Shown piece after piece: positions 53,686 to 64,000 of a stretch of DNA of 64,000 nucleotides. Position 1 is the first letter of the stretch. Every line of letters begins with the position of its first letter. This DNA is from Myxococcales bacterium (GTDB taxonomy: Bacteria; Myxococcota_A; Polyangia; Nannocystales; Nannocystaceae): contig JACKDV010000004.1 of assembly GCA_020633315.1 (NCBI GenBank), positions 384,071 to 448,070 on the forward strand, read 5' to 3'. The position numbers and the translations under genes are program-made. The notes below the pieces were generated by a model. It had not been told where the DNA came from. It ran no database searches and was given only the letters and a program-made list of their open reading frames with translations.

Positions 53686-54242
53686 GGGAACGAGAGGCGG
53701 TCTAGACGCCGTGGAGGGCCGGGGACAGGAGGCGAGCGGAGGACGGGGTGCCTTGATCGAGTGTCATGACGAGCTCGCCTCTCGCCAGCATGACCGGGAG
53801 GGTGCTCGTCGGGGCTCGCATGATCTGCGGAACGCGACGCAAGACCACCATGGTGAGCGGGTTCTCGAAGAGGTTGGAGCCCGGCAGTCGGCACCAGCGG
53901 GCGCGTGACTCGGAGGGGGAATGGTCACACGTGCTGGAGACCGACCACCGGGCTCGGCGGGGCTCCTTCCAAGGAGACGTCCGCCATCACCCAGAGAGAA
54001 GGAGGTGATGGAGGACGTCGGGGGTGGAGGGATGTGGGCTCAGACTAGTCATCGATGGCCCACATCGCCAGGGGACGACGTTCGCAAAGCTTGCGCTCCG
54101 CCGCGACCATCGCCGCGCGAGTTTCCGGTGCGTGTGGGGGCTCCGCGAGGCAGCCCACGACGCAAAGATTGCTCGCAGGTGGGCATGGCGAGGCTTCCTT
54201 CTTCGCTCGATGGCATCGGGGGCGCACCGCAGATTGGGCTCG

Positions 54243-55658
<1,416 letters not shown>

Positions 55659-56397: not shown

Positions 56398-58314
56398 CTA
56401 GGGACAGGGGCTGAGGCCGCAGAAGGTCTCCACCTCGTCCACGCAGAAGATGTCCCAGGCGGTGTCGCAGCAGTAGGAGTCGTAGAAGCAGATCGTGTCG
56501 ACGCAGGCGTCGCAGCCGAGCGATAGCGTCCCACCGGTGGTGCACAGGTCGTGGGTGCAGCCGTCGCCCGCACAGATGCCGCACACCAAGGGGGCATTGC
56601 CGGCACAGATGCCGTCCCACAGGGTGTCGCAGCAGTAGGGATCGGCGGCGCACATGGCCGCCTCGCAGCCGGCCTCGTTGCAGCCCGGGCTGCCGTTGGC
56701 GATGCAGCAGTCGCCCGAGTCGGTGAGGCAGGCGCTGGTGTCGAACGAGGCGCAGTCACCCGAGCAGGCCAGGGTGCCGCCGGCGGGGAAGCCCTGGGTG
56801 CCGCAGGTCTGGCCGGCCAGGTTGGCGCCATCGCAGACCTCGGGGCCGTCGACCAGGCCGTTGCCGCAGGAGCTGCAGCTGGTGGTGTTGAAGGTGCAGT
56901 TGGGGGCGCACAGCAGGGTGCCGCCGGTGTAGCCCTGGGTGATGCAGGTCTCGCCGTCGAGGTCGGCGCCGTCGCACTGCTCGAAGCCGTTGAGCACCCC
57001 GTCGCCGCAGTCGAAGCAGCCCGAGGTGTCGAAGGCGACGCAGCCGGGGCTGCAGGCCAGGGTGCCGCCGTCGAAGCCCTGGGTGATGCAGGACTCGCCG
57101 TCGAGGTTGGCTCCGTCGCACACCTCGCCCAGGGTCACCAGGCCGTCGCCGCAGCTCCAGGTGATGCAGCCCGAGGTGTCGAAGCCGCCGCAGCCGGGCG
57201 CGCAGGCGAGGGTGCCCGCGTCGAAGCCCTGGGCGATGCAGGTCTCGCCGCCGAGGTTGAGGAAGTCGCAGGCCTCGGCGGCCTCGATCACGTTGTTGCC
57301 GCAGATCGAGCAGCCCGAGGTGTCGAACGAGCAGGTGGTGGGGTCGCAGGCGAGGGTGCCCCCGTCGTAGCCCACGCCGATGGTCGTGCAGCTCTGCCCG
57401 CCGAGGTCGGCGCCGTCGCACTGCTCGCCCACCGCGGGGGTGATCATGCCGTCTCCGCAGGAGTAGTCGTTGCAGCCCGCGGGGTCGAAGGCGCCGCAGC
57501 CCGCGGCGCAGGCCAGCGTGCCGTAGTCGTAGCCCTGGGTCACGCAGGTCTCGCCGTCGAGGTCGGCCCCGTCGCACAGCTCGGCGCCCTGCGCCGTGCC
57601 GTCGCCGCAGGCGGTGCAGGCCGAGGTGTCGAAGGCACAGCTGACCGGGTCGCAGGCGAGGGTGCCGGCGTCGAAGCCCATGCCGAGGGTGGTGCAGCCG
57701 TTGCCGTCGAGGTCGGCCCCGTCGCAGCTCTCACCCGGATCGAGGGTGCCGTTGTTGCACTCCCAGCTCACGCAGCCCGAGACGTCGAAGGTGCACGAGC
57801 TCGGGTCGCAGGCGAGGGTGCCGGCGTCGAAGCCCATGCCGAGGGTGGTGCAATCGTTGCCGTCGAGCTCGTCGCCCTCGCAGGTCTCGGGCGGCTGGAT
57901 CGTCCCGTCGCCGCACTCCCAGGAGACGCACTCCGAGCGGTCGAAGGTGCAGGTGCGAGGGTCGCAGGCGAGGGCGCCCTCGTCGAAGCCCAGGCCCACG
58001 CAGTCCTGGCCGTCGAGCTCGCTGCCGTCGCACTCCTCGCCCTCCTCGAGCCGCTCGTTGCCGCACTCGGGCGGGACCGGCCCGGTGGAGTCGGGCCCCG
58101 TGTCGTCGGCCCCGGTGCTCTGCGCCGCGCCCGTGCCCACCTCGGTGTCACCGGCCGAGCCGTCGCTGCCGCCGGGGCCCATGCCCGTGTCGCCGCCCCC
58201 CGAGTCGCTGGTGGGCACGCCGAAGGTGGTGAGGATGCCGGGCGTGGTGTCGTCCCCGCAGCCCGCCGCCACCAACGACACCCCCAGCCCCAGTGATCCG
58301 ATCCAACCCCGCAT
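56398..58314 (-). CDS. Secreted lipoprotein built from ~12 Myxococcus-type cysteine-rich repeats, with a C-terminal Cys-knot-like tail.
   Basis: 'SLGLGVSLVAAGC' lipobox. Recurring 'CG(N/D)Gxxxx(G)EECDGxxLDGxxCxxxGfxxGtLaC' units. Trimmed from the 1051-aa track ORF. An alternative start lies at 58338. Confidence 0.8.
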   Translation of the reverse strand: MRGWIGSLGLGVSLVAAGCGDDTTPGILTTFGVPTSDSGGGDTGMGPGGSDGSAGDTEVGTGAAQSTGADDTGPDSTGPVPPECGNERLEEGEECDGSELDGQDCVGLGFDEGALACDPRTCTFDRSECVSWECGDGTIQPPETCEGDELDGNDCTTLGMGFDAGTLACDPSSCTFDVSGCVSWECNNGTLDPGESCDGADLDGNGCTTLGMGFDAGTLACDPVSCAFDTSACTACGDGTAQGAELCDGADLDGETCVTQGYDYGTLACAAGCGAFDPAGCNDYSCGDGMITPAVGEQCDGADLGGQSCTTIGVGYDGGTLACDPTTCSFDTSGCSICGNNVIEAAEACDFLNLGGETCIAQGFDAGTLACAPGCGGFDTSGCITWSCGDGLVTLGEVCDGANLDGESCITQGFDGGTLACSPGCVAFDTSGCFDCGDGVLNGFEQCDGADLDGETCITQGYTGGTLLCAPNCTFNTTSCSSCGNGLVDGPEVCDGANLAGQTCGTQGFPAGGTLACSGDCASFDTSACLTDSGDCCIANGSPGCNEAGCEAAMCAADPYCCDTLWDGICAGNAPLVCGICAGDGCTHDLCTTGGTLSLGCDACVDTICFYDSYCCDTAWDIFCVDEVETFCGLSPCP

Positions 58315-58442
58315 GGTCGAGATCGTATCCCAAACCATCGCCCGTCGACGCACGATCGACGCACGAGTCGAGCGCCCGAGGGCCGCTCGCACCGGTCCCC
58401 GCGCTCGGGCTCGACCCGTGAGCGGGGATCGAGGAGCGAGGA

Positions 58443-59495
58443 TCAGGGGATGAAGTTGGCGCAGCCCTCGGCCACCTTGGCGAGCACCTCCTGGAAGAAG
58501 GGCCCGTAGCCGTCGCTGCACACGCTGCCGACGGCGTGGTTGGGGAAGCGCTCCACGAAGTCCACCAGGCGCGAGGACTGCTCGGCCCCGTCGACGCCCT
58601 GAGAGAGGTCTGCGCAGTCCTCGAACTTGGGCGAGCCCCCCAGCAGCCCCAGGGCCACGATGTTGGTCTCGCGCCCGTTCTTGATGGCCACCACCGCGTC
58701 GAACCACTCGGCGGGCTCGCCCACGCTGCCGCCGAGCTCGGCCCAGTTGTCCTCCTCGTCGGTGATGAGCAGGAAGATCAGCAGGGCATCGTCGCGGATG
58801 AAGCCCTGGTTGCAGCCCTCCGCCGCATTGAGCTCGTCGGACATCGCGGCCACCAGCGCCCCCGCCTGCTGCTCCACGGGGTTGCCCACCGCGCCGACCA
58901 GGGCGGCACAGCCGAACTCGTTGGGGAAGGTCTCCGAGGTGCCGTCCATGTAGGGGGCCCCCGTGGAGAACTCGCAGCTGAGCTCGGGGTCGCTGGCGCT
59001 CTGCGGCTTGGTCAGCAGCGAGCCCAGCTGGTAGTCGCAGGAGCTGCAGTCGACGCCCGACGCCGAGCAGCTGTCGAGGGGATCCTCGAGGGTCCCCAGC
59101 CCCGGGTAGCTGTCGGTGTCGATCACCCCCACCCGCACGCTCTCCACGTTGGGCAGCGCGTTCTGCATGGCGTCGACGAAGCCGGGCACGCCCTGGGCGA
59201 GGAACTGCTGCTCGTCGGTCATGCTCGGGGAGTTGTCCACCACGAACACGAAGTCGACCGCGTTGCAGCGGAACTGCTGGCCCTCGCCGCTCGAGTCCTC
59301 GGCCGTGCCGTCGAAGATGCCGTCGTCGAGCGAGGTGCCCGTGGTGCCGGTGGCGTGGATGCCCTCGGTGAGGTCGATGCCGTCCTCGCCGGAGTCGCCG
59401 CTGGCCGAGTCGTCCCCGCCGCCGCAGGCGAGGGCGAGCGAGGCGAGCAGGAGCGTGGCGGGGCCGCTGATGGTCTTCGGAGTGCGCTCGGTCAT
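58443..59495 (-). CDS. Lipoprotein with a vWA-like (MIDAS) domain.
   Basis: 'LLLASLALAC' lipobox, an Asp/Gly/Ser linker, and the 'VDFVFVVDNSPSMTDEQ' DxSxS MIDAS motif. Confidence 0.7.
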   Translation of the reverse strand: MTERTPKTISGPATLLLASLALACGGGDDSASGDSGEDGIDLTEGIHATGTTGTSLDDGIFDGTAEDSSGEGQQFRCNAVDFVFVVDNSPSMTDEQQFLAQGVPGFVDAMQNALPNVESVRVGVIDTDSYPGLGTLEDPLDSCSASGVDCSSCDYQLGSLLTKPQSASDPELSCEFSTGAPYMDGTSETFPNEFGCAALVGAVGNPVEQQAGALVAAMSDELNAAEGCNQGFIRDDALLIFLLITDEEDNWAELGGSVGEPAEWFDAVVAIKNGRETNIVALGLLGGSPKFEDCADLSQGVDGAEQSSRLVDFVERFPNHAVGSVCSDGYGPFFQEVLAKVAEGCANFIP

Positions 59496-59518
59496 GGCCT
59501 TGTTCCCGGGAGGAGCGC

Positions 59519-61744
59519 TCAGAAGTTCTCGTAGACGATGACCACGTTGTCACCGACCACCGGCACGTTGTTGAGGATCTGCAGGGTGCAGGTGAGCGGG
59601 TCGTAGCTCCAGTCGCCGGGCGGCATCGGGATGCCGTTGACCACCACCGTGATCGTGGCCGGATCGATGAGCGCGCAGCTCCCCGGCGGCACCCCGTCGA
59701 GGATGTAGAGGTCGTTGGGCACGCCGGCCAGGATGTCGTTGGCGAGGCCGCTGAGATCCCAGGGCGCGTCGCAGATGGAGAACATCGAGGGCAGGGTGTT
59801 GGTGACCTGGGCGAGCTTGACGTACTCCTGGCCGTCCTCCACCCCGGTGACGCAGGTGTTGAACTCGTAGACGTCGTCGGCGCCCGTGAGGGTGGCGGTG
59901 CCGGTGTTGCCGATGATCGGGAACACGCCCCAGTCGTCGCCGGGCGTGCTGTCCGGGAAGTAGTCGCCCATGAAGGAGACGAAGCCGCCGTAGATCAGGA
60001 AGTCGAAGGCCAGCGAGGTGTAGTTGCCCAGGCCCGGCGGATCCCAGCGGCAGATGTTGTCCACCGTGAGGTCGTCGATGATGCCGAAGCCGCAGTCGTC
60101 CACGTTGGAGGAGTCGCCGTCGGCGATGGTCCACTGGGGATCGTCGCCGTCGTCGTCCGAGGTGAAGATGAAGGCGATGTACGAGTTGGGCTGCAGCCGC
60201 GGGATCCAGTAGCCCGACTGCTGCATCACCCGGCCGATGGCGTTGCTCGAGTGCACGAACTCGAAGCCGTTGGTCGGGCCGTTGGTGTCGTACTGCCAGA
60301 AGCCGGCGCCCGGGTTGTCGGCGCAGCCGGCCCCGCCCAGCGGGGGCGACACGCAGATCTCGAACGACTCGGTGCCGCGGTCGGCGATGAGGTGCAGCGC
60401 GGTGGACGAGCCGGACGCGGCCAGGTCGTTGGCGAAGGAGTTGATCTCCGCCTCCACCGTGGCCATCTCCTCGCTCATCGAGCCCGAGGAGTCCACGGCC
60501 CAGATCACGTCGATGGGCCGGGTGGCGGTGTCGGTGCCCACCAAGAAGGTCTCGGCGCAGGGCGGGGCCACCCCGTCGCAGTTGTTGTCGATGCCGTCGC
60601 CGCAGATCTCTGGCCCGCCCGGGATCGGCACGCAGGTGTTCTCGGGCTGCGGCACGCCGCCGATGCACTGCGGCACGGTGACCTCGCACTCGTTCATGCC
60701 GCAGGTCCAGTTGCCCTGGTCCTCGTCCACGATGCAGTCGCAGTCGTTGTCGATGCCGTCGCAGATCTCCGGGCTGGCGCCCTCGAAGGGATCGCAGACC
60801 TGGGGGAAGCCGTTGATGCACGACGCGATGGTGTGCTCGCACGCTCCGCAGCCGCAGGTGATGTCGGGCAGGCCCTCGTCGGTCGCGCCGTCGCAGTCGT
60901 TGTCGATGTCGTCGCAGACCTCGGGGGAGGCGCCCTCGAAGGGATCGCAGGGGGGCACCGCCCCGCCCTCGCAGGCCGACACGGTGTGCTCGCACTGGCC
61001 CACGCCGCAGCTCTGGGTCTCGTCGCCCAGGCCCTCGTCGATGTCGCCGTCGCAGTCGTTGTCGACCAGGTCGCAGATCTCGGGCGTGGCCCCGTCGAGG
61101 GGATCGCACAGCTGCTCCATGCCCAGCACGCAGTTGTCCTGCTCGTGCAGGCACGGGCCCAGGCCGCACTGGGTGGTGCCCAGGTCCTCGTCGAGGTCGC
61201 CGTCGCAGTCGTTGTCGACCGCGTCGCAGACCTCCATGGTGGGCAGGCCCTCGCCCTCGCAGGGCCCCCACTCGCCCACGTCGAGGTCGAGCGCCTGGCA
61301 CTGCTGGATGCCCGGCGTGCACTCGCCCACGTTGTACGTGGCCGGGTTGCCCGTGTAGCAGTAGCGGACCTGGCCCGGAGGGGCGCACAGGCCCGTCTCC
61401 TCGCCGGGGTAGCGATCGGGAGGATCGCCCGGGCCTCCGCCGCCGGTGTCCCCGCTGCCGCCCGTGTCGGGATCGCTGCTGGTGGTCCCGTCGCCCGGGC
61501 CCATCGTCTCGCCGTTGGTGTCGTCGGCCGAGTCGCCGGAGTTGGCCGCACCGGTGCCGATGCCATCGCTGCCCGCGGTGCCGTCCATCCCGCTGGTGGC
61601 TCCGGTGCTGCCCGCGGTGGCGCTCGTTCCTCCGGAGCCGTCGTTGCCTGCGGTGGCGTTCGCGACGTCGTCGGAGCCTCCGCACGCTCCGAGGGCGACA
61701 GCAACGACCGACGATCCGATGAGGCGAAAATCGAAGCGAGCCAT
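59519..61744 (-). CDS. Secreted lipoprotein: 5 MopE-like putative metal-binding motifs ('CDxxDNDCDGxxDE') + vWA-like domain + C-terminal beta domain.
   Basis: 'VVAVALGAC' lipobox. 'EVCDAVDNDCDGDLDE', 'EICDLVDNDCDGDIDE', 'EVCDDIDNDCDGATDE', 'EICDGIDNDCDCIVDE', 'EICGDGIDNNCDG'. vWA 'IDVIWAVDSSGSMSEE'. An 'aggggatc' RBS precedes the trimmed start. Confidence 0.8.
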   Translation of the reverse strand: MARFDFRLIGSSVVAVALGACGGSDDVANATAGNDGSGGTSATAGSTGATSGMDGTAGSDGIGTGAANSGDSADDTNGETMGPGDGTTSSDPDTGGSGDTGGGGPGDPPDRYPGEETGLCAPPGQVRYCYTGNPATYNVGECTPGIQQCQALDLDVGEWGPCEGEGLPTMEVCDAVDNDCDGDLDEDLGTTQCGLGPCLHEQDNCVLGMEQLCDPLDGATPEICDLVDNDCDGDIDEGLGDETQSCGVGQCEHTVSACEGGAVPPCDPFEGASPEVCDDIDNDCDGATDEGLPDITCGCGACEHTIASCINGFPQVCDPFEGASPEICDGIDNDCDCIVDEDQGNWTCGMNECEVTVPQCIGGVPQPENTCVPIPGGPEICGDGIDNNCDGVAPPCAETFLVGTDTATRPIDVIWAVDSSGSMSEEMATVEAEINSFANDLAASGSSTALHLIADRGTESFEICVSPPLGGAGCADNPGAGFWQYDTNGPTNGFEFVHSSNAIGRVMQQSGYWIPRLQPNSYIAFIFTSDDDGDDPQWTIADGDSSNVDDCGFGIIDDLTVDNICRWDPPGLGNYTSLAFDFLIYGGFVSFMGDYFPDSTPGDDWGVFPIIGNTGTATLTGADDVYEFNTCVTGVEDGQEYVKLAQVTNTLPSMFSICDAPWDLSGLANDILAGVPNDLYILDGVPPGSCALIDPATITVVVNGIPMPPGDWSYDPLTCTLQILNNVPVVGDNVVIVYENF

Positions 61745-61934
61745 GATCCCCTGACCTCTGCGCTCTGATTCGAGCGGCCTCACATGATTACATGAAAAAA
61801 CCGTTGGCTTCCATCCAATAAAATTTCGCATAGAAAACTGCTTGGATTCCTGTTTTCGGGCGGCCAGCCGGATCGGAGCCCCCGCTACCGAGGGAGTTAC
61901 CGCCGATTTTCTTCGTGCGACAGATGTTTTTGTA

Positions 61935-61964
61935 TTGCTGAATACCAATAATATGGATGATAAT
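61935..61964 (+). promoter_or_regulatory. Candidate sigma-70-like promoter (TTGCTG-N17-TGATAAT) in an AT-rich region.
   Basis: 'ttgctg' at 61935-40, a 17-nt spacer, then 'tgataat' at 61958-64, about 30 nt upstream of the ATG at 61994. The local GC of ~45% contrasts with the ~70% genome. Confidence 0.3.
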
Positions 61965-61993
61965 GAGCCATCCTAGGAACCGGACGCCCTTGC

Positions 61994-64000
61994 ATGAACC
62001 TTCGAGTCTCGTCCTCGTTGCTCCGTTCGCTCCTCCTGCCTGCGGTCGCCCTCGGTGGCTGTAGCGACGACGCGGTCGGTGCCGACGGAGGGACCAACGG
62101 CATCGAGTCGCTCGACGGCGGTGTCGACAGCTCGACCGGCGCGATGGCCAGCAGCTCCTCGGGAGCCGAGTCCACCGGCGAGCCGCTGCCCTGCGACAAC
62201 GGCATCCAGGACGGTGACGAGAGCGACGTGGACTGCGGCGGGAGCAGCTGCGATCCCTGCGGTCCCGGTGGCGCCTGCACCAGCCCCGAGGACTGCGACA
62301 CGATGATCTGCTCGGGCGGCTTCTGCCAGACCCCCACCTGCTACGACGGGATGCGCAACGGCAGCGAGGAGGGGGTCGACTGCGGCGGGACCTGCCCCAA
62401 CGAGTGCATCGGCGACGGCTGCGGCACCGACAACCAGTGCGGCGACGGCTACTTCTGCCTGGACGGCGAGTGCCTCGAGTCGTCGTGCGAGAACGAGCTG
62501 CAGGACACCCTCGAGTCCGACGTGGACTGCGGCGGGGCCGACTGCCCCAACTGCGGCCCGGGCCAGGGCTGCAACACCGACGCCGACTGCACCACGATGG
62601 TCTGCGGCGACGATGGGCTGTGCGCGGGCCCGATGTGCGACGACGCCACGCTCAACGGCGACGAGACCGATCTCGACTGCGGCGGCTCGTGCCCGCCCTG
62701 CCCCAACGGGGGCTCGTGCCTCGACCCCAGCGACTGCGTCGAGGGCGTGTGCGAGATGGGCACCTGCCAGGACGACACCTGCGTGGACATGGTGTTCAAC
62801 GGCCAGGAGACCGACCAGGACTGCGGCGGCCCCGAGTGCCCCGAGTGCATGGACGGCCAGACGTGCATGAACGGGGGCGACTGCAGCAGCGGCGTGTGCA
62901 TGGGGGGCCTGTGCGTGCCGCCCATGTGCGACGACATGGTGCTCAACGGGGACGAGACCGATCTCGACTGCGGAGGCTTGTGCGGGGCGACCTGCGTGCC
63001 GGGGCAGGACTGCGACGGCTCCTTCGACTGCGTGGAGGGGGTGTGCGAGTTCGGCCAGTGCTCCAACCCCGACTGCTCCGACGGGGTCGCCAACGGCACC
63101 GAGTCCGACGTGGACTGCGGGGGCATCTGCGGCTCCACCTGCGATCCAGGCGAGCAGTGCAACGTGGCGGGCGACTGCGAGGAGGGCGTGTGCGTGGTGG
63201 GGGTCTGCGCGCTGCCCACCTGCATGGACATGGTGGAGAACGGGGACGAGAGCGACCTCGACTGCGGAGGCGCCTGCGGTCCCACCTGCGTGCCCGGGGA
63301 GAGCTGCGGCAACGGAGGTGACTGCACCGAGGGCGTGTGCGTGCTGGGCGTGTGCCAGGCGCCCACCTGCAACGACGGCGTGCAGAACGGGATCGAGCTG
63401 GGCGTGGACTGCTCGGGCAACTGCGACCAGCCCTGCCCGGTGGGCGGCGAGGTCACCATCAACACCACGCTGCCCGACTTCCAGGTGCAGCCGGCCGTGG
63501 CCGCGGCCCCTGGCGGCGGCTTCTATGCCGTGACCTGGGCCAGCTACCCCGTGCTCGACCCGCCCCAGGACGGCAGCGGCTCCGGGGTCTACGTGCGCAC
63601 CTACGACGCCCTCGGCGGGGCGATCACCGGCGAGGTGCTGGTCAACGCCACCACCGCGGGCAACCAGAGCTTCCCCGCCATCGATGCCAACGACGTGGGC
63701 TTCGTGGTGGCCTGGCAGGGCCCGGACGCCGACGGCAACGGCGTGTTCGCCCAGCGCTTCAACGCGGGCGGGTTCCCGGTGGGCGGCGAGATCGTGGTCG
63801 CGGCCAGCCCCCTCGACGAGCAGCGGCGCCCCGACGTGGCGATCGAGAACGGCGGCACCTTCGTGGTGTGCTGGGAGGACGAGACCCTCACCTTCGAGAT
63901 CCTGTGCCGACGCTTCTCGGGCGCCGGCGCGCCCCTCACCGCCGAGATCGCGGTCAACACCGTCACCGCCGACCAGCAGAACCTGCCGGTGGTGGAGATC
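61994..64000 (+). CDS. Secreted lipoprotein with ~9 tandem ~40-aa Cys-rich modules ('C..NG.E.D.DCGG.C..C..G..C....DC..G.C'), then a beta-rich domain. 3'-truncated at the window edge.
   Basis: 'MNLRVSSSLLRSLLLPAVALGGC' lipobox. The repeats were read directly from the codons. The frame is open to base 64000. This CDS is absent from the ORF track because it has no stop inside the window. Confidence 0.8.
   Translation, partial: MNLRVSSSLLRSLLLPAVALGGCSDDAVGADGGTNGIESLDGGVDSSTGAMASSSSGAESTGEPLPCDNGIQDGDESDVDCGGSSCDPCGPGGACTSPEDCDTMICSGGFCQTPTCYDGMRNGSEEGVDCGGTCPNECIGDGCGTDNQCGDGYFCLDGECLESSCENELQDTLESDVDCGGADCPNCGPGQGCNTDADCTTMVCGDDGLCAGPMCDDATLNGDETDLDCGGSCPPCPNGGSCLDPSDCVEGVCEMGTCQDDTCVDMVFNGQETDQDCGGPECPECMDGQTCMNGGDCSSGVCMGGLCVPPMCDDMVLNGDETDLDCGGLCGATCVPGQDCDGSFDCVEGVCEFGQCSNPDCSDGVANGTESDVDCGGICGSTCDPGEQCNVAGDCEEGVCVVGVCALPTCMDMVENGDESDLDCGGACGPTCVPGESCGNGGDCTEGVCVLGVCQAPTCNDGVQNGIELGVDCSGNCDQPCPVGGEVTINTTLPDFQVQPAVAAAPGGGFYAVTWASYPVLDPPQDGSGSGVYVRTYDALGGAITGEVLVNATTAGNQSFPAIDANDVGFVVAWQGPDADGNGVFAQRFNAGGFPVGGEIVVAASPLDEQRRPDVAIENGGTFVVCWEDETLTFEILCRRFSGAGAPLTAEIAVNTVTADQQNLPVVEI

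Follow-up and report, generated by a model that had tools for sequence, protein, structure and literature searches.

We analysed a 64,000-nucleotide stretch of DNA from the genome of a marine, uncultured member of the Nannocystaceae (Myxococcales bacterium, contig JACKDV010000004.1, positions 384,071 to 448,070; hereafter the window) and focused on a group of genes at 56398-64000, near its end, that encode Cys-rich-repeat and von Willebrand factor A (vWA)-like proteins. Genes were called from reading frames with high GC content at third codon positions (GC3) together with an open reading frame (ORF) listing and translation, which gave four genes, g1 to g4, in a region of ~70% GC. An earlier note on this DNA had described four consecutive genes with these motifs. 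The ORF listing and translation do place four motif-bearing ORFs side by side, and a motif scan of the whole 64-kb window found their diagnostic motifs confined to this region; however, only g1, g2 and g3 share the minus strand, whereas g4 lies on the plus strand, divergent from g3, and is cut by the window end. The features of the region are as follows:

56398-58338, minus strand: g1, lipoprotein of 638-646 amino acids (aa) (ORF; start at ATG 58338, as in the calls on metagenome contigs, or at ATG 58314)
56722-58065, minus strand: g1 repeat region, nine units of 48-52 aa (regular expression and DNA tandem repeat)
56401-56721, minus strand: g1 C-terminal Cys-rich domain, ~107 aa (motif scan)
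58443-59495, minus strand: g2, lipoprotein of 350 aa (ORF and translation)
58446-59267, minus strand: predicted vWA domain of g2, residues 77-350 (AlphaFold2 (AF2) and Foldseek)
59211-59237, minus strand: DNSPSMTDE stretch of g2, resembling the MIDAS (metal-ion-dependent adhesion site) and the ADMIDAS (site adjacent to MIDAS) (sequence)
59519-61744, minus strand: g3, lipoprotein of 741 aa (ORF and translation)
about 60533-61393, minus strand: Cys-rich stalk of g3 with five PF11617 motifs (Pfam)
59522-60532, minus strand: C-terminal domain of g3, 337 aa (sequence)
60467-60493, minus strand: DSSGSMSEE motif of g3 (sequence)
61745-61993, no strand: divergent intergenic spacer between g3 and g4, 249 bp (sequence and GC content)
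61994-64000, plus strand: g4, lipoprotein cut by the window end, 669 of ~870 aa visible (translation)
62192-63448, plus strand: stalk of g4, residues 67-485, eight full and one partial 49-aa modules (module consensus)
63449-64000, plus strand: beginning of the head domain of g4, with the first ~3.3 of its seven repeats visible (repeat alignment in an orthologue)

All four N-termini carry a lipobox in the style of PROSITE PS51257 (K/R in the first 7 residues, a hydrophobic stretch, then [LIVMFWSTAG]2-[LIVMFYSTAGCQ]-[AGS]-C), in which the lipobox Cys is residue 19 in g1, 24 in g2, 21 in g3 and 23 in g4 and is followed by an acidic stretch; the sequences in g1 and g4, for instance, are LVAAGC and ALGGC. 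Because every N-terminus satisfies this rule, the four proteins are predicted to be lipoproteins rather than freely secreted proteins. A lipobox is likewise present in 36 of 50 members of the g2 family and, as the genes were called, in 18 of 28 g4 orthologues. The proteins are very acidic, with D+E contents of 16-17%.

Three of the four genes recur together elsewhere. In nine related Nannocystaceae loci (protein identity 48-82%), the divergent g3/g4 pair was found every time and g2 follows g3 in seven, while the genes that flank the set are wholly different from locus to locus. The g3 orthologues in these loci are 64-76% identical. The loci compare as follows:

L007, Paraliomyxa miuraensis: divergent g3/g4 pair, yes; g2 after g3, yes; g1-like gene, no
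L009: divergent g3/g4 pair, yes; g2 after g3, no; g1-like gene, no
L010: divergent g3/g4 pair, yes; g2 after g3, yes; g1-like gene, no
L091: divergent g3/g4 pair, yes; g2 after g3, yes; g1-like gene, no
L092, degraded, beside transposases: divergent g3/g4 pair, yes; g2 after g3, yes; g1-like gene, no
L093: divergent g3/g4 pair, yes; g2 after g3, yes; g1-like gene, no
L094: divergent g3/g4 pair, yes; g2 after g3, yes; g1-like gene, no
L095, second, paralogous pair of the same Paraliomyxa genome: divergent g3/g4 pair, yes; g2 after g3, no; g1-like gene, no
L096: divergent g3/g4 pair, yes; g2 after g3, yes; g1-like gene, no

The genes g3 and g2 are often nearly contiguous, with called ends that overlap by 1 nt in L093 and are separated by 1 to 2 nt in L094 and L096. 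From this gene order, the divergently transcribed g3/g4 pair is the predicted conserved core, and g2 is best read as usually co-transcribed just downstream of g3. The assembly of four genes that the earlier note had proposed is not borne out, since conservation as a group extends only to g4, g3 and, usually, g2 and no homologue of g1 was found in any of the nine loci. Nine short metagenome contigs also carry exact copies of g2, with g3 and g1 (called 105 nt after g2) as its neighbours, and we read them as coming from the same species.

Some of the related loci carry further genes beside the set. A g2 paralogue with 31% identity and the same MIDAS motif lies convergent to and directly downstream of the g4 orthologue in L007 (12660-13718, minus strand) and in L010 (12737-13750, minus strand); the equivalent position in the present genome falls beyond the window end at 64000. 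Genes for a cytochrome P450 and an ERG4/ERG24-type sterol reductase adjoin the conserved set in the same two loci (L007 13766-16540; L010 13863-16528), are not seen in the window, and may be related to myxobacterial sterol synthesis. At L092 (1-8900), the g4 orthologue is a 420-aa remnant, g3 is split into two ORFs, and the neighbours include Transposase_mut, a PIN toxin and a type I restriction helicase, so that this locus looks like a decaying copy of the g3/g4/g2 set.

The g3 protein consists of an acidic, Gly/Ser/Thr-rich linker, a Cys-rich stalk and a C-terminal part of 337 aa that begins with IDVIWAVDSSGSMSEE. Pfam family PF11617 (Cu-binding_MopE) matches the stalk in five stretches (76.4 bits, E=1.9e-21; gathering cut-off 27), in agreement with the five MopE-like motifs that had been noticed earlier. 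While the five copies lie well above threshold, the motif forms only the first third of a ~51-aa unit with six Cys, which is repeated five times and can be seen in the DNA as a repeat with a period of 153-159 nt, and there was no sign of copper binding. Teneurins, a diatom glucanase and algal gametolysins contain the same motif (PMC3278476). Behind the stalk, g3 carries the DxSxSMx[DE][DE] signature that is also present in g2. A profile comparison with hhalign related the C-terminal domain to the g2 family with 82% probability, over 36 columns only; among ten g3 orthologues, Pfam VWA matched four weakly (best E=0.044) and Integrin_beta matched one (E=0.1). A homologue search with this domain returned 11 proteins, mostly fragments, and the comparisons with vWA domains are weak because the resulting profile is shallow. 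The earlier assignment of a vWA domain to g3 is thus supported in part, through its motif and these matches.

In g2, an acidic and disordered linker (residues 25-75) leads straight into the vWA domain (residues 77-350), with no stalk between them. The Pfam match is weak: VWA_2 reached 14.9 bits against a cut-off of 27, and among 50 members of the family VWA_2 was detected in 39 and VWA in 27, all weakly. An AF2 model based on 50 homologues had an overall predicted local distance difference test (pLDDT) score of 82.7, with values above 90 in the core. Foldseek found 70 matches to this model in the PDB at E<=1e-3, led by integrin beta chains (E=1e-5, probability 1.0); the top 35 are integrin beta subunits, followed by the vWA domains of collagen VI and ITIH1, and of the 50 matches listed, 49 are vWA-containing proteins, at TM-scores of only 0.36-0.40. 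The predicted fold is therefore vWA, closest to integrin beta-I domains, and the earlier description of g2 as a vWA lipoprotein is upheld by this fold and the lipobox, although Pfam falls short of its threshold.

The metal-binding positions of g2 are well conserved. Among the 50 homologues, D246 is invariant and D87, S89 and S91 each reach at least 90% conservation; with strand positions taken from the AF2 model, D87/S89/S91 and D246 fit a complete MIDAS signature, namely DxSxS behind beta1 plus an Asp after beta4. The DNSPSMTDE of g2 and the DSSGSMSEE of g3 align to D119-LSYSMKDD-127 of integrin beta3 (query sequence matched to residues 111-359 of PDB 1tye_B), an alignment that is statistically weak in hhalign (probability 1.6-4%). 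A search of 5.8 billion proteins showed the g2 family to be small, with 113 members, all of them unnamed, ~350 aa long and from Nannocystaceae-type Myxococcota.

The stalk of g4 is built from modules of 49 aa with eight Cys each, in eight full copies and one partial copy; the nine modules that the earlier note had counted are broadly recovered, although their period is 49 rather than ~40 aa. Across 120 homologues the dominant anchor spacing is 48-51 aa. A consensus drawn from 374 modules reads C.DGV.NG.ETDVDCGG..C..C..G..C....DC.SGVC..G.C..P., with E10, D14, C15, G16 and G17 near-invariant, and successive modules are joined by four-residue linkers of the form x-x-P-x. An AF2 model of three modules (pLDDT 91.8) is confident across the junctions and shows short beta-bridges plus one helical turn per module. 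Both the number and the positions of the modules are conserved one-to-one among 28 orthologues.

As had been suspected, this module cannot be assigned to a named family. We used a single module, three modules and the 28 full-length orthologues as queries against Pfam, NCBIfam and PDB sequences, and found no match in Pfam-A 2025, NCBIfam r20, PDB sequences or PDB folds; a search of the literature for DVDCGG brought up only an unrelated paper on cone snails. The only PDB folds that resemble part of the module are the inhibitor-cystine-knot, Dickkopf and colipase mini-folds, with non-significant matches (E>=1.1, probability <=0.35), and these have no counterpart of its acidic N-terminal NG.ETDVDCGG half, while the g4 module itself has eight Cys. 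Yet the module is not rare. A word-indexed search gave at least 4,600 matches, and an exhaustive profile search recovered 12,893 representative proteins at E<=1e-3, of which 6,972 at E<=1e-10, which points to a very common and very large uncurated family. In these homologues the array precedes varied heads, including CBM_3, fibrinogen_C, TSP_C, PKD, FG-GAP, FGE-sulfatase, BNR and LTD domains, and because it is fused to so many different head domains, we read the module as a generic stalk or spacer. One protein from the green alga Chromochloris zofingiensis (P0054, 1106 aa; EukProt, jgi/Chrzof1) consists almost wholly of ~22 copies of it, which could reflect genuine eukaryotic use, horizontal transfer or assembly contamination.

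Full-length g4 orthologues measure 866-880 aa and share 50-82% identity. Their head domain, aligned in orthologue P0001, comprises seven repeats of ~55 aa with the pattern E..VN..T...Q..P.VA....G.FVV.W.....DG...GVFAQRF...G.P.G. No recurrent Pfam family, and no FG-GAP or other Pfam propeller match, was found for the head across the 28 orthologues; the sole weak match was to NF053835 (PDIAV motif lipoprotein), at 10.9 and 16.7 bits against a cut-off of 90.

The fourth gene, g1, encodes nine Cys-rich units, each 48-52 aa long and with six Cys, as found by regular expression, rather than the ~12 previously counted. The units are also detectable in the DNA as a tandem repeat (period 144-156 nt, 69-83% matches) and follow the consensus CGDG..E.CDG.DL.G..C...G...GTL.C...C.FDTS.C. 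Their likeness to the Myxococcus cysteine-rich acidic repeat (TIGR02232/DUF4215), the type under which they had been placed, lies in the same CG[DN]G....E.CD core at the start of each repeat, whereas the second half of the unit, G..C...G...GTL.C...C.FDTS.C, falls outside both models. TIGR02232 is passed marginally (23.5 bits, cut-off 20.8), and DUF4215 is below its cut-off (22 bits against 27). The C-terminal domain carries two YCCDT.WD..C motifs and had no match in Pfam or NCBIfam. We take g1 to be a species-specific neighbour, a probable bystander outside the conserved set; it is best read as a member of the abundant myxobacterial class of acidic Cys-rich-repeat proteins that adjoins the set by chance in this species. 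At L009 (12646-15024, plus strand), a 792-aa protein downstream of the g4 orthologue has ~14 canonical repeats of the TIGR02232 type (CGDGV.N..AGE.CD) and ends in a MYXO-CTERM-like tail (GCSC...LLGLLGLMRRRRRR); it differs from g1 and occupies an analogous neighbouring role.

The repeats of g1, g3 and g4 differ in how they appear at the DNA level. Tandem repeats are still recognisable in g1 (56722-58065) and in g3 (60737-61234), with 69-83% matches, and not in the g4 modules (62192-63448). Since DNA repeats are visible only in g1 and g3, and the g4 modules are conserved by position across the 28 orthologues, these observations suggest that the repeats of g1 and g3 expanded recently and that the g4 array is old and fixed. 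In hhalign, the g4 module profile gave probabilities below 1% against g1 and g3, and a shared origin of the three repeat types is not supported. The only likeness seen, over 12 residues, is to the start of the g1 repeats, where residues 435-446 of g1 share C.DGV.NG.E with the start of the g4 module (hhalign, E=0.12); it could be due to convergence or to distant common ancestry of the acidic first half.

The 249-bp spacer between g3 and g4 has a GC content of 50%, compared with about 70% in its flanks, and is presumed to be a shared promoter region. Promoter and Rfam scans found no sigma-70 consensus and no Rfam element in it, and the terminator, promoter and Rfam scans returned no convincing regulatory element. 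In the g2-g1 intergenic region, an 11-nt direct repeat (GTCGACGCACGA, 3.1 copies) lies at 58344-58380, directly upstream of the g1 start, and is preceded by a GC-rich hairpin directly after the g2 stop. We rejected the hairpin, its stability being no greater than that of shuffled controls (z = -1.0).

Upstream of the cluster, the window holds housekeeping genes, which encode a Sua5/YciO protein, a PaaA-like oxygenase, a CBS protein, acyl-CoA dehydrogenases, an HtrA protease and an ABC transporter. A 544-aa protein at 54024-55658 (plus strand), possibly a BoxB-like di-iron oxygenase, has only a borderline PaaA_PaaC match (28.2 bits against 28.5) and appears unrelated to the lipoprotein cluster.

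We interpret the region as a conserved three-gene cell-surface adhesion module of Nannocystaceae, formed by g4, g3 and usually g2, together with g1 as an unrelated neighbour, and give this interpretation a probability of roughly 0.55. The members would share an anatomy of lipid anchor, acidic linker, disulfide-rich stalk and C-terminal head, in which at least one head, and probably two, is a MIDAS vWA domain. The adhesion module is favoured because this anatomy matches that of CglD and of the vWA adhesin CglB of Myxococcus. The suggestion of an adhesive function, already made in the earlier note, is supported in part by the predicted vWA fold and MIDAS of g2, by the MIDAS signature behind the Cys-rich stalk of g3, and by the analogy with CglD.

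CglD of Myxococcus xanthus (the MXAN_0962-type adventurous gliding motility lipoprotein, NF033765) is the closest characterised analogue. It has been described as a beta-integrin-like lipoprotein at the surface whose stalk is Cys-rich and whose MIDAS is needed for gliding (preprint 10.1101/2023.10.19.562135). The proteins described here resemble it in being myxococcotal lipoproteins with a disulfide-stabilised Cys-rich stalk and a beta-integrin-like vWA domain with a DxSxS MIDAS, but they differ in that they have no COMP/TSP3-like Ca-binding domain, in that g2 is stalk-less and the stalk of g3 is made of PF11617 units, and in that the context contains no gliding genes. Orthology with CglD was rejected: g2 scores 22.5 bits against an equivalog cut-off of 400 and matches only profile positions 634-799, which correspond to the beta-I region, and g3 does not match at all. 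CglB, the vWA adhesin of the Glt gliding machinery, is an outer-membrane lipoprotein that uses its MIDAS to couple the cell to the substratum (PMC9946355). It is described as alpha-I-domain-like, whereas g2 is closest to beta-I; the two are thus set apart by description and not by sequence.

Likeness also extends to integrin beta subunits, whose beta-I domain (PF00362) is the best structural match of g2 and whose beta3 D119-D127 segment resembles the DxSxSMx[DE][DE] motifs of g2 and g3, and in which a Cys-rich leg likewise stands beside a vWA head. However, Pfam Integrin_beta is unmatched here save in the one g3 orthologue mentioned above, the topology is inverted (N-terminal lipid anchor, C-terminal head), and there are no hybrid, PSI or I-EGF domains.

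In the proposed mechanism, an N-terminal lipid would anchor each protein in the outer membrane. In g3, the anchor and linker would be followed by five MopE-type units that make up the stalk, then by a vWA-like head with a MIDAS and last by a tail folded as a beta-sandwich; in g4, the anchor and linker would lead to 8.5 disulfide-knotted 49-aa modules as the stalk and to a propeller-like head of seven repeats; and g2, which lacks a stalk, would be a vWA lipoprotein whose fold is like that of integrin beta-I. The repeats, rich in disulfides and probably stabilised by Ca2+, would act as rigid spacers that keep the C-terminal heads off the cell. The vWA heads may then bind acidic residues of a ligand via a MIDAS-coordinated divalent cation, in the manner of integrin I-domains and of CglB/CglD, while the propeller head could serve as a second binding surface or as a partner surface. 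Likely ligands would be polymers of the substratum, the matrix or the surface of prey. The gene models, the lipoboxes, the architecture of the repeats, the predicted g2 fold, the MIDAS motifs and the synteny are shown by the analysis, whereas we infer the outer-membrane or surface location, the binding of Ca2+ by the repeats, any protein-protein interaction and the ligand.

Several observations weigh against the adhesion module. Two of the nine loci, L009 and L095, are without g2, and in a genome-wide scan with the g2 profile the matches listed, which are paralogues of 25-39% identity and do not include true orthologues, show the family to be multi-copy in genomes and to occur across Nannocystaceae and Polyangia without g3/g4 neighbours. 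Because these paralogues are scattered in this way, g2-type proteins can probably work alone. The vWA head of g3 is likely, on matches that are weak, and the seven-bladed beta-propeller of g4 is one that we infer from its seven repeats. An alignment of seven orthologous g3/g4 spacers revealed no conserved block or regulatory motif, and no Glt/Agl gliding genes are adjacent in the window or in the related loci examined.

A more specific possibility, which we regard as tentative and rather unlikely, is that the proteins form an integrin-like heterodimer, in which g4 contributes a seven-bladed propeller that binds the beta-I-type vWA domain of g3 and/or g2, much as the alpha subunit of an integrin does with the beta subunit, the ligand site lies at the interface, both subunits stand on Cys-rich legs, and the head is assembled on the Nannocystaceae outer membrane. 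The closeness of the predicted g2 fold to integrin beta-I domains, the beta-integrin-type motif in g2 and g3, the weak Integrin_beta match in one g3 orthologue, the presence of exactly seven repeats in the g4 head and the strict pairing of g3 and g4 in all nine loci, the paralogous pair included, are all in keeping with it. On the other side, the g4 repeats match neither FG-GAP nor another Pfam propeller family, the hhalign probabilities against integrin beta3 and the Foldseek TM-scores are low, and vWA domains that bear insertions tend to match integrin beta chains anyway. It is about equally doubtful that the genes form no functional unit at all, Cys-rich lipoprotein genes being so numerous in these large genomes that adjacency arises by chance. 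The lack of g1 conservation at the locus, the different Cys-rich repeat protein with a MYXO-CTERM-like tail beside g4 in L009, the many other contexts of g2 paralogues and the huge size of the g4 module family would all fit such an explanation. Nevertheless, g3 and g4 are kept together in nine of nine loci at 48-82% protein identity, with g2 in seven, and because this pairing persists while the flanks change completely, synteny rules out chance adjacency for g3/g4 and for g2; for g1 it still stands.

Two further explanations concern single features of the proteins. An extracellular system for the capture of copper or another metal, as the earlier note had suggested from MIDAS sites alongside MopE-like motifs, could account for the five Cu-binding_MopE copies in g3 and for the acidity of all four proteins, but it is improbable. 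MIDAS sites use metal for ligand binding and not for metal scavenging. The name of PF11617 is the sole basis of the suggestion, and that motif is a generic Cys/Asp-rich unit, shared with the teneurins, glucanase and gametolysins cited above (PMC3278476). No TonB receptor, P-type ATPase, metallochaperone or other metal transporter was found adjacent in the window or in the nine related loci, and a CopC match in g4 orthologues is sub-threshold and sporadic (3 of 28). Still more improbable, to the point of being hardly credible, is that g4 is a polyprotein precursor that releases its 49-aa modules as knottin-like peptides such as toxins or inhibitors. The idea stems from the only PDB fold matches of the module, to inhibitor-cystine-knot toxins, Dkk4 and colipase, which cover 25-30 residues and are non-significant (E>=1.1). 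Against this, there are no conserved cleavage sites between the modules, their x-x-P-x linkers are four residues long and they are modelled confidently as a continuous array, a globular head always follows the array, and each module position is orthologously conserved.

If neither the adhesion module nor the gap in the annotation of the 49-aa module holds, the locus would be an ordinary set of myxobacterial Cys-rich lipoproteins. What appears to be new is an uncharacterised variant of the myxobacterial theme of vWA plus Cys-rich-stalk lipoproteins, built in part from a large uncurated module family. The 49-aa module at present lacks a Pfam or NCBIfam model as well as a solved structure; once named, it would provide an annotation for the stalk in thousands of surface proteins that are now hypothetical. 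Recent work has put forward CglB and CglD, both myxobacterial vWA lipoproteins, as the bacterial equivalent of integrin adhesion. The g3/g4/g2 set of marine Nannocystaceae, in which beta-I-like vWA lipoproteins would be paired with a propeller lipoprotein, is a testable candidate for a two-subunit version of such integrin-like adhesion, of which the cultured species Paraliomyxa miuraensis carries two copies of the g3/g4 pair.

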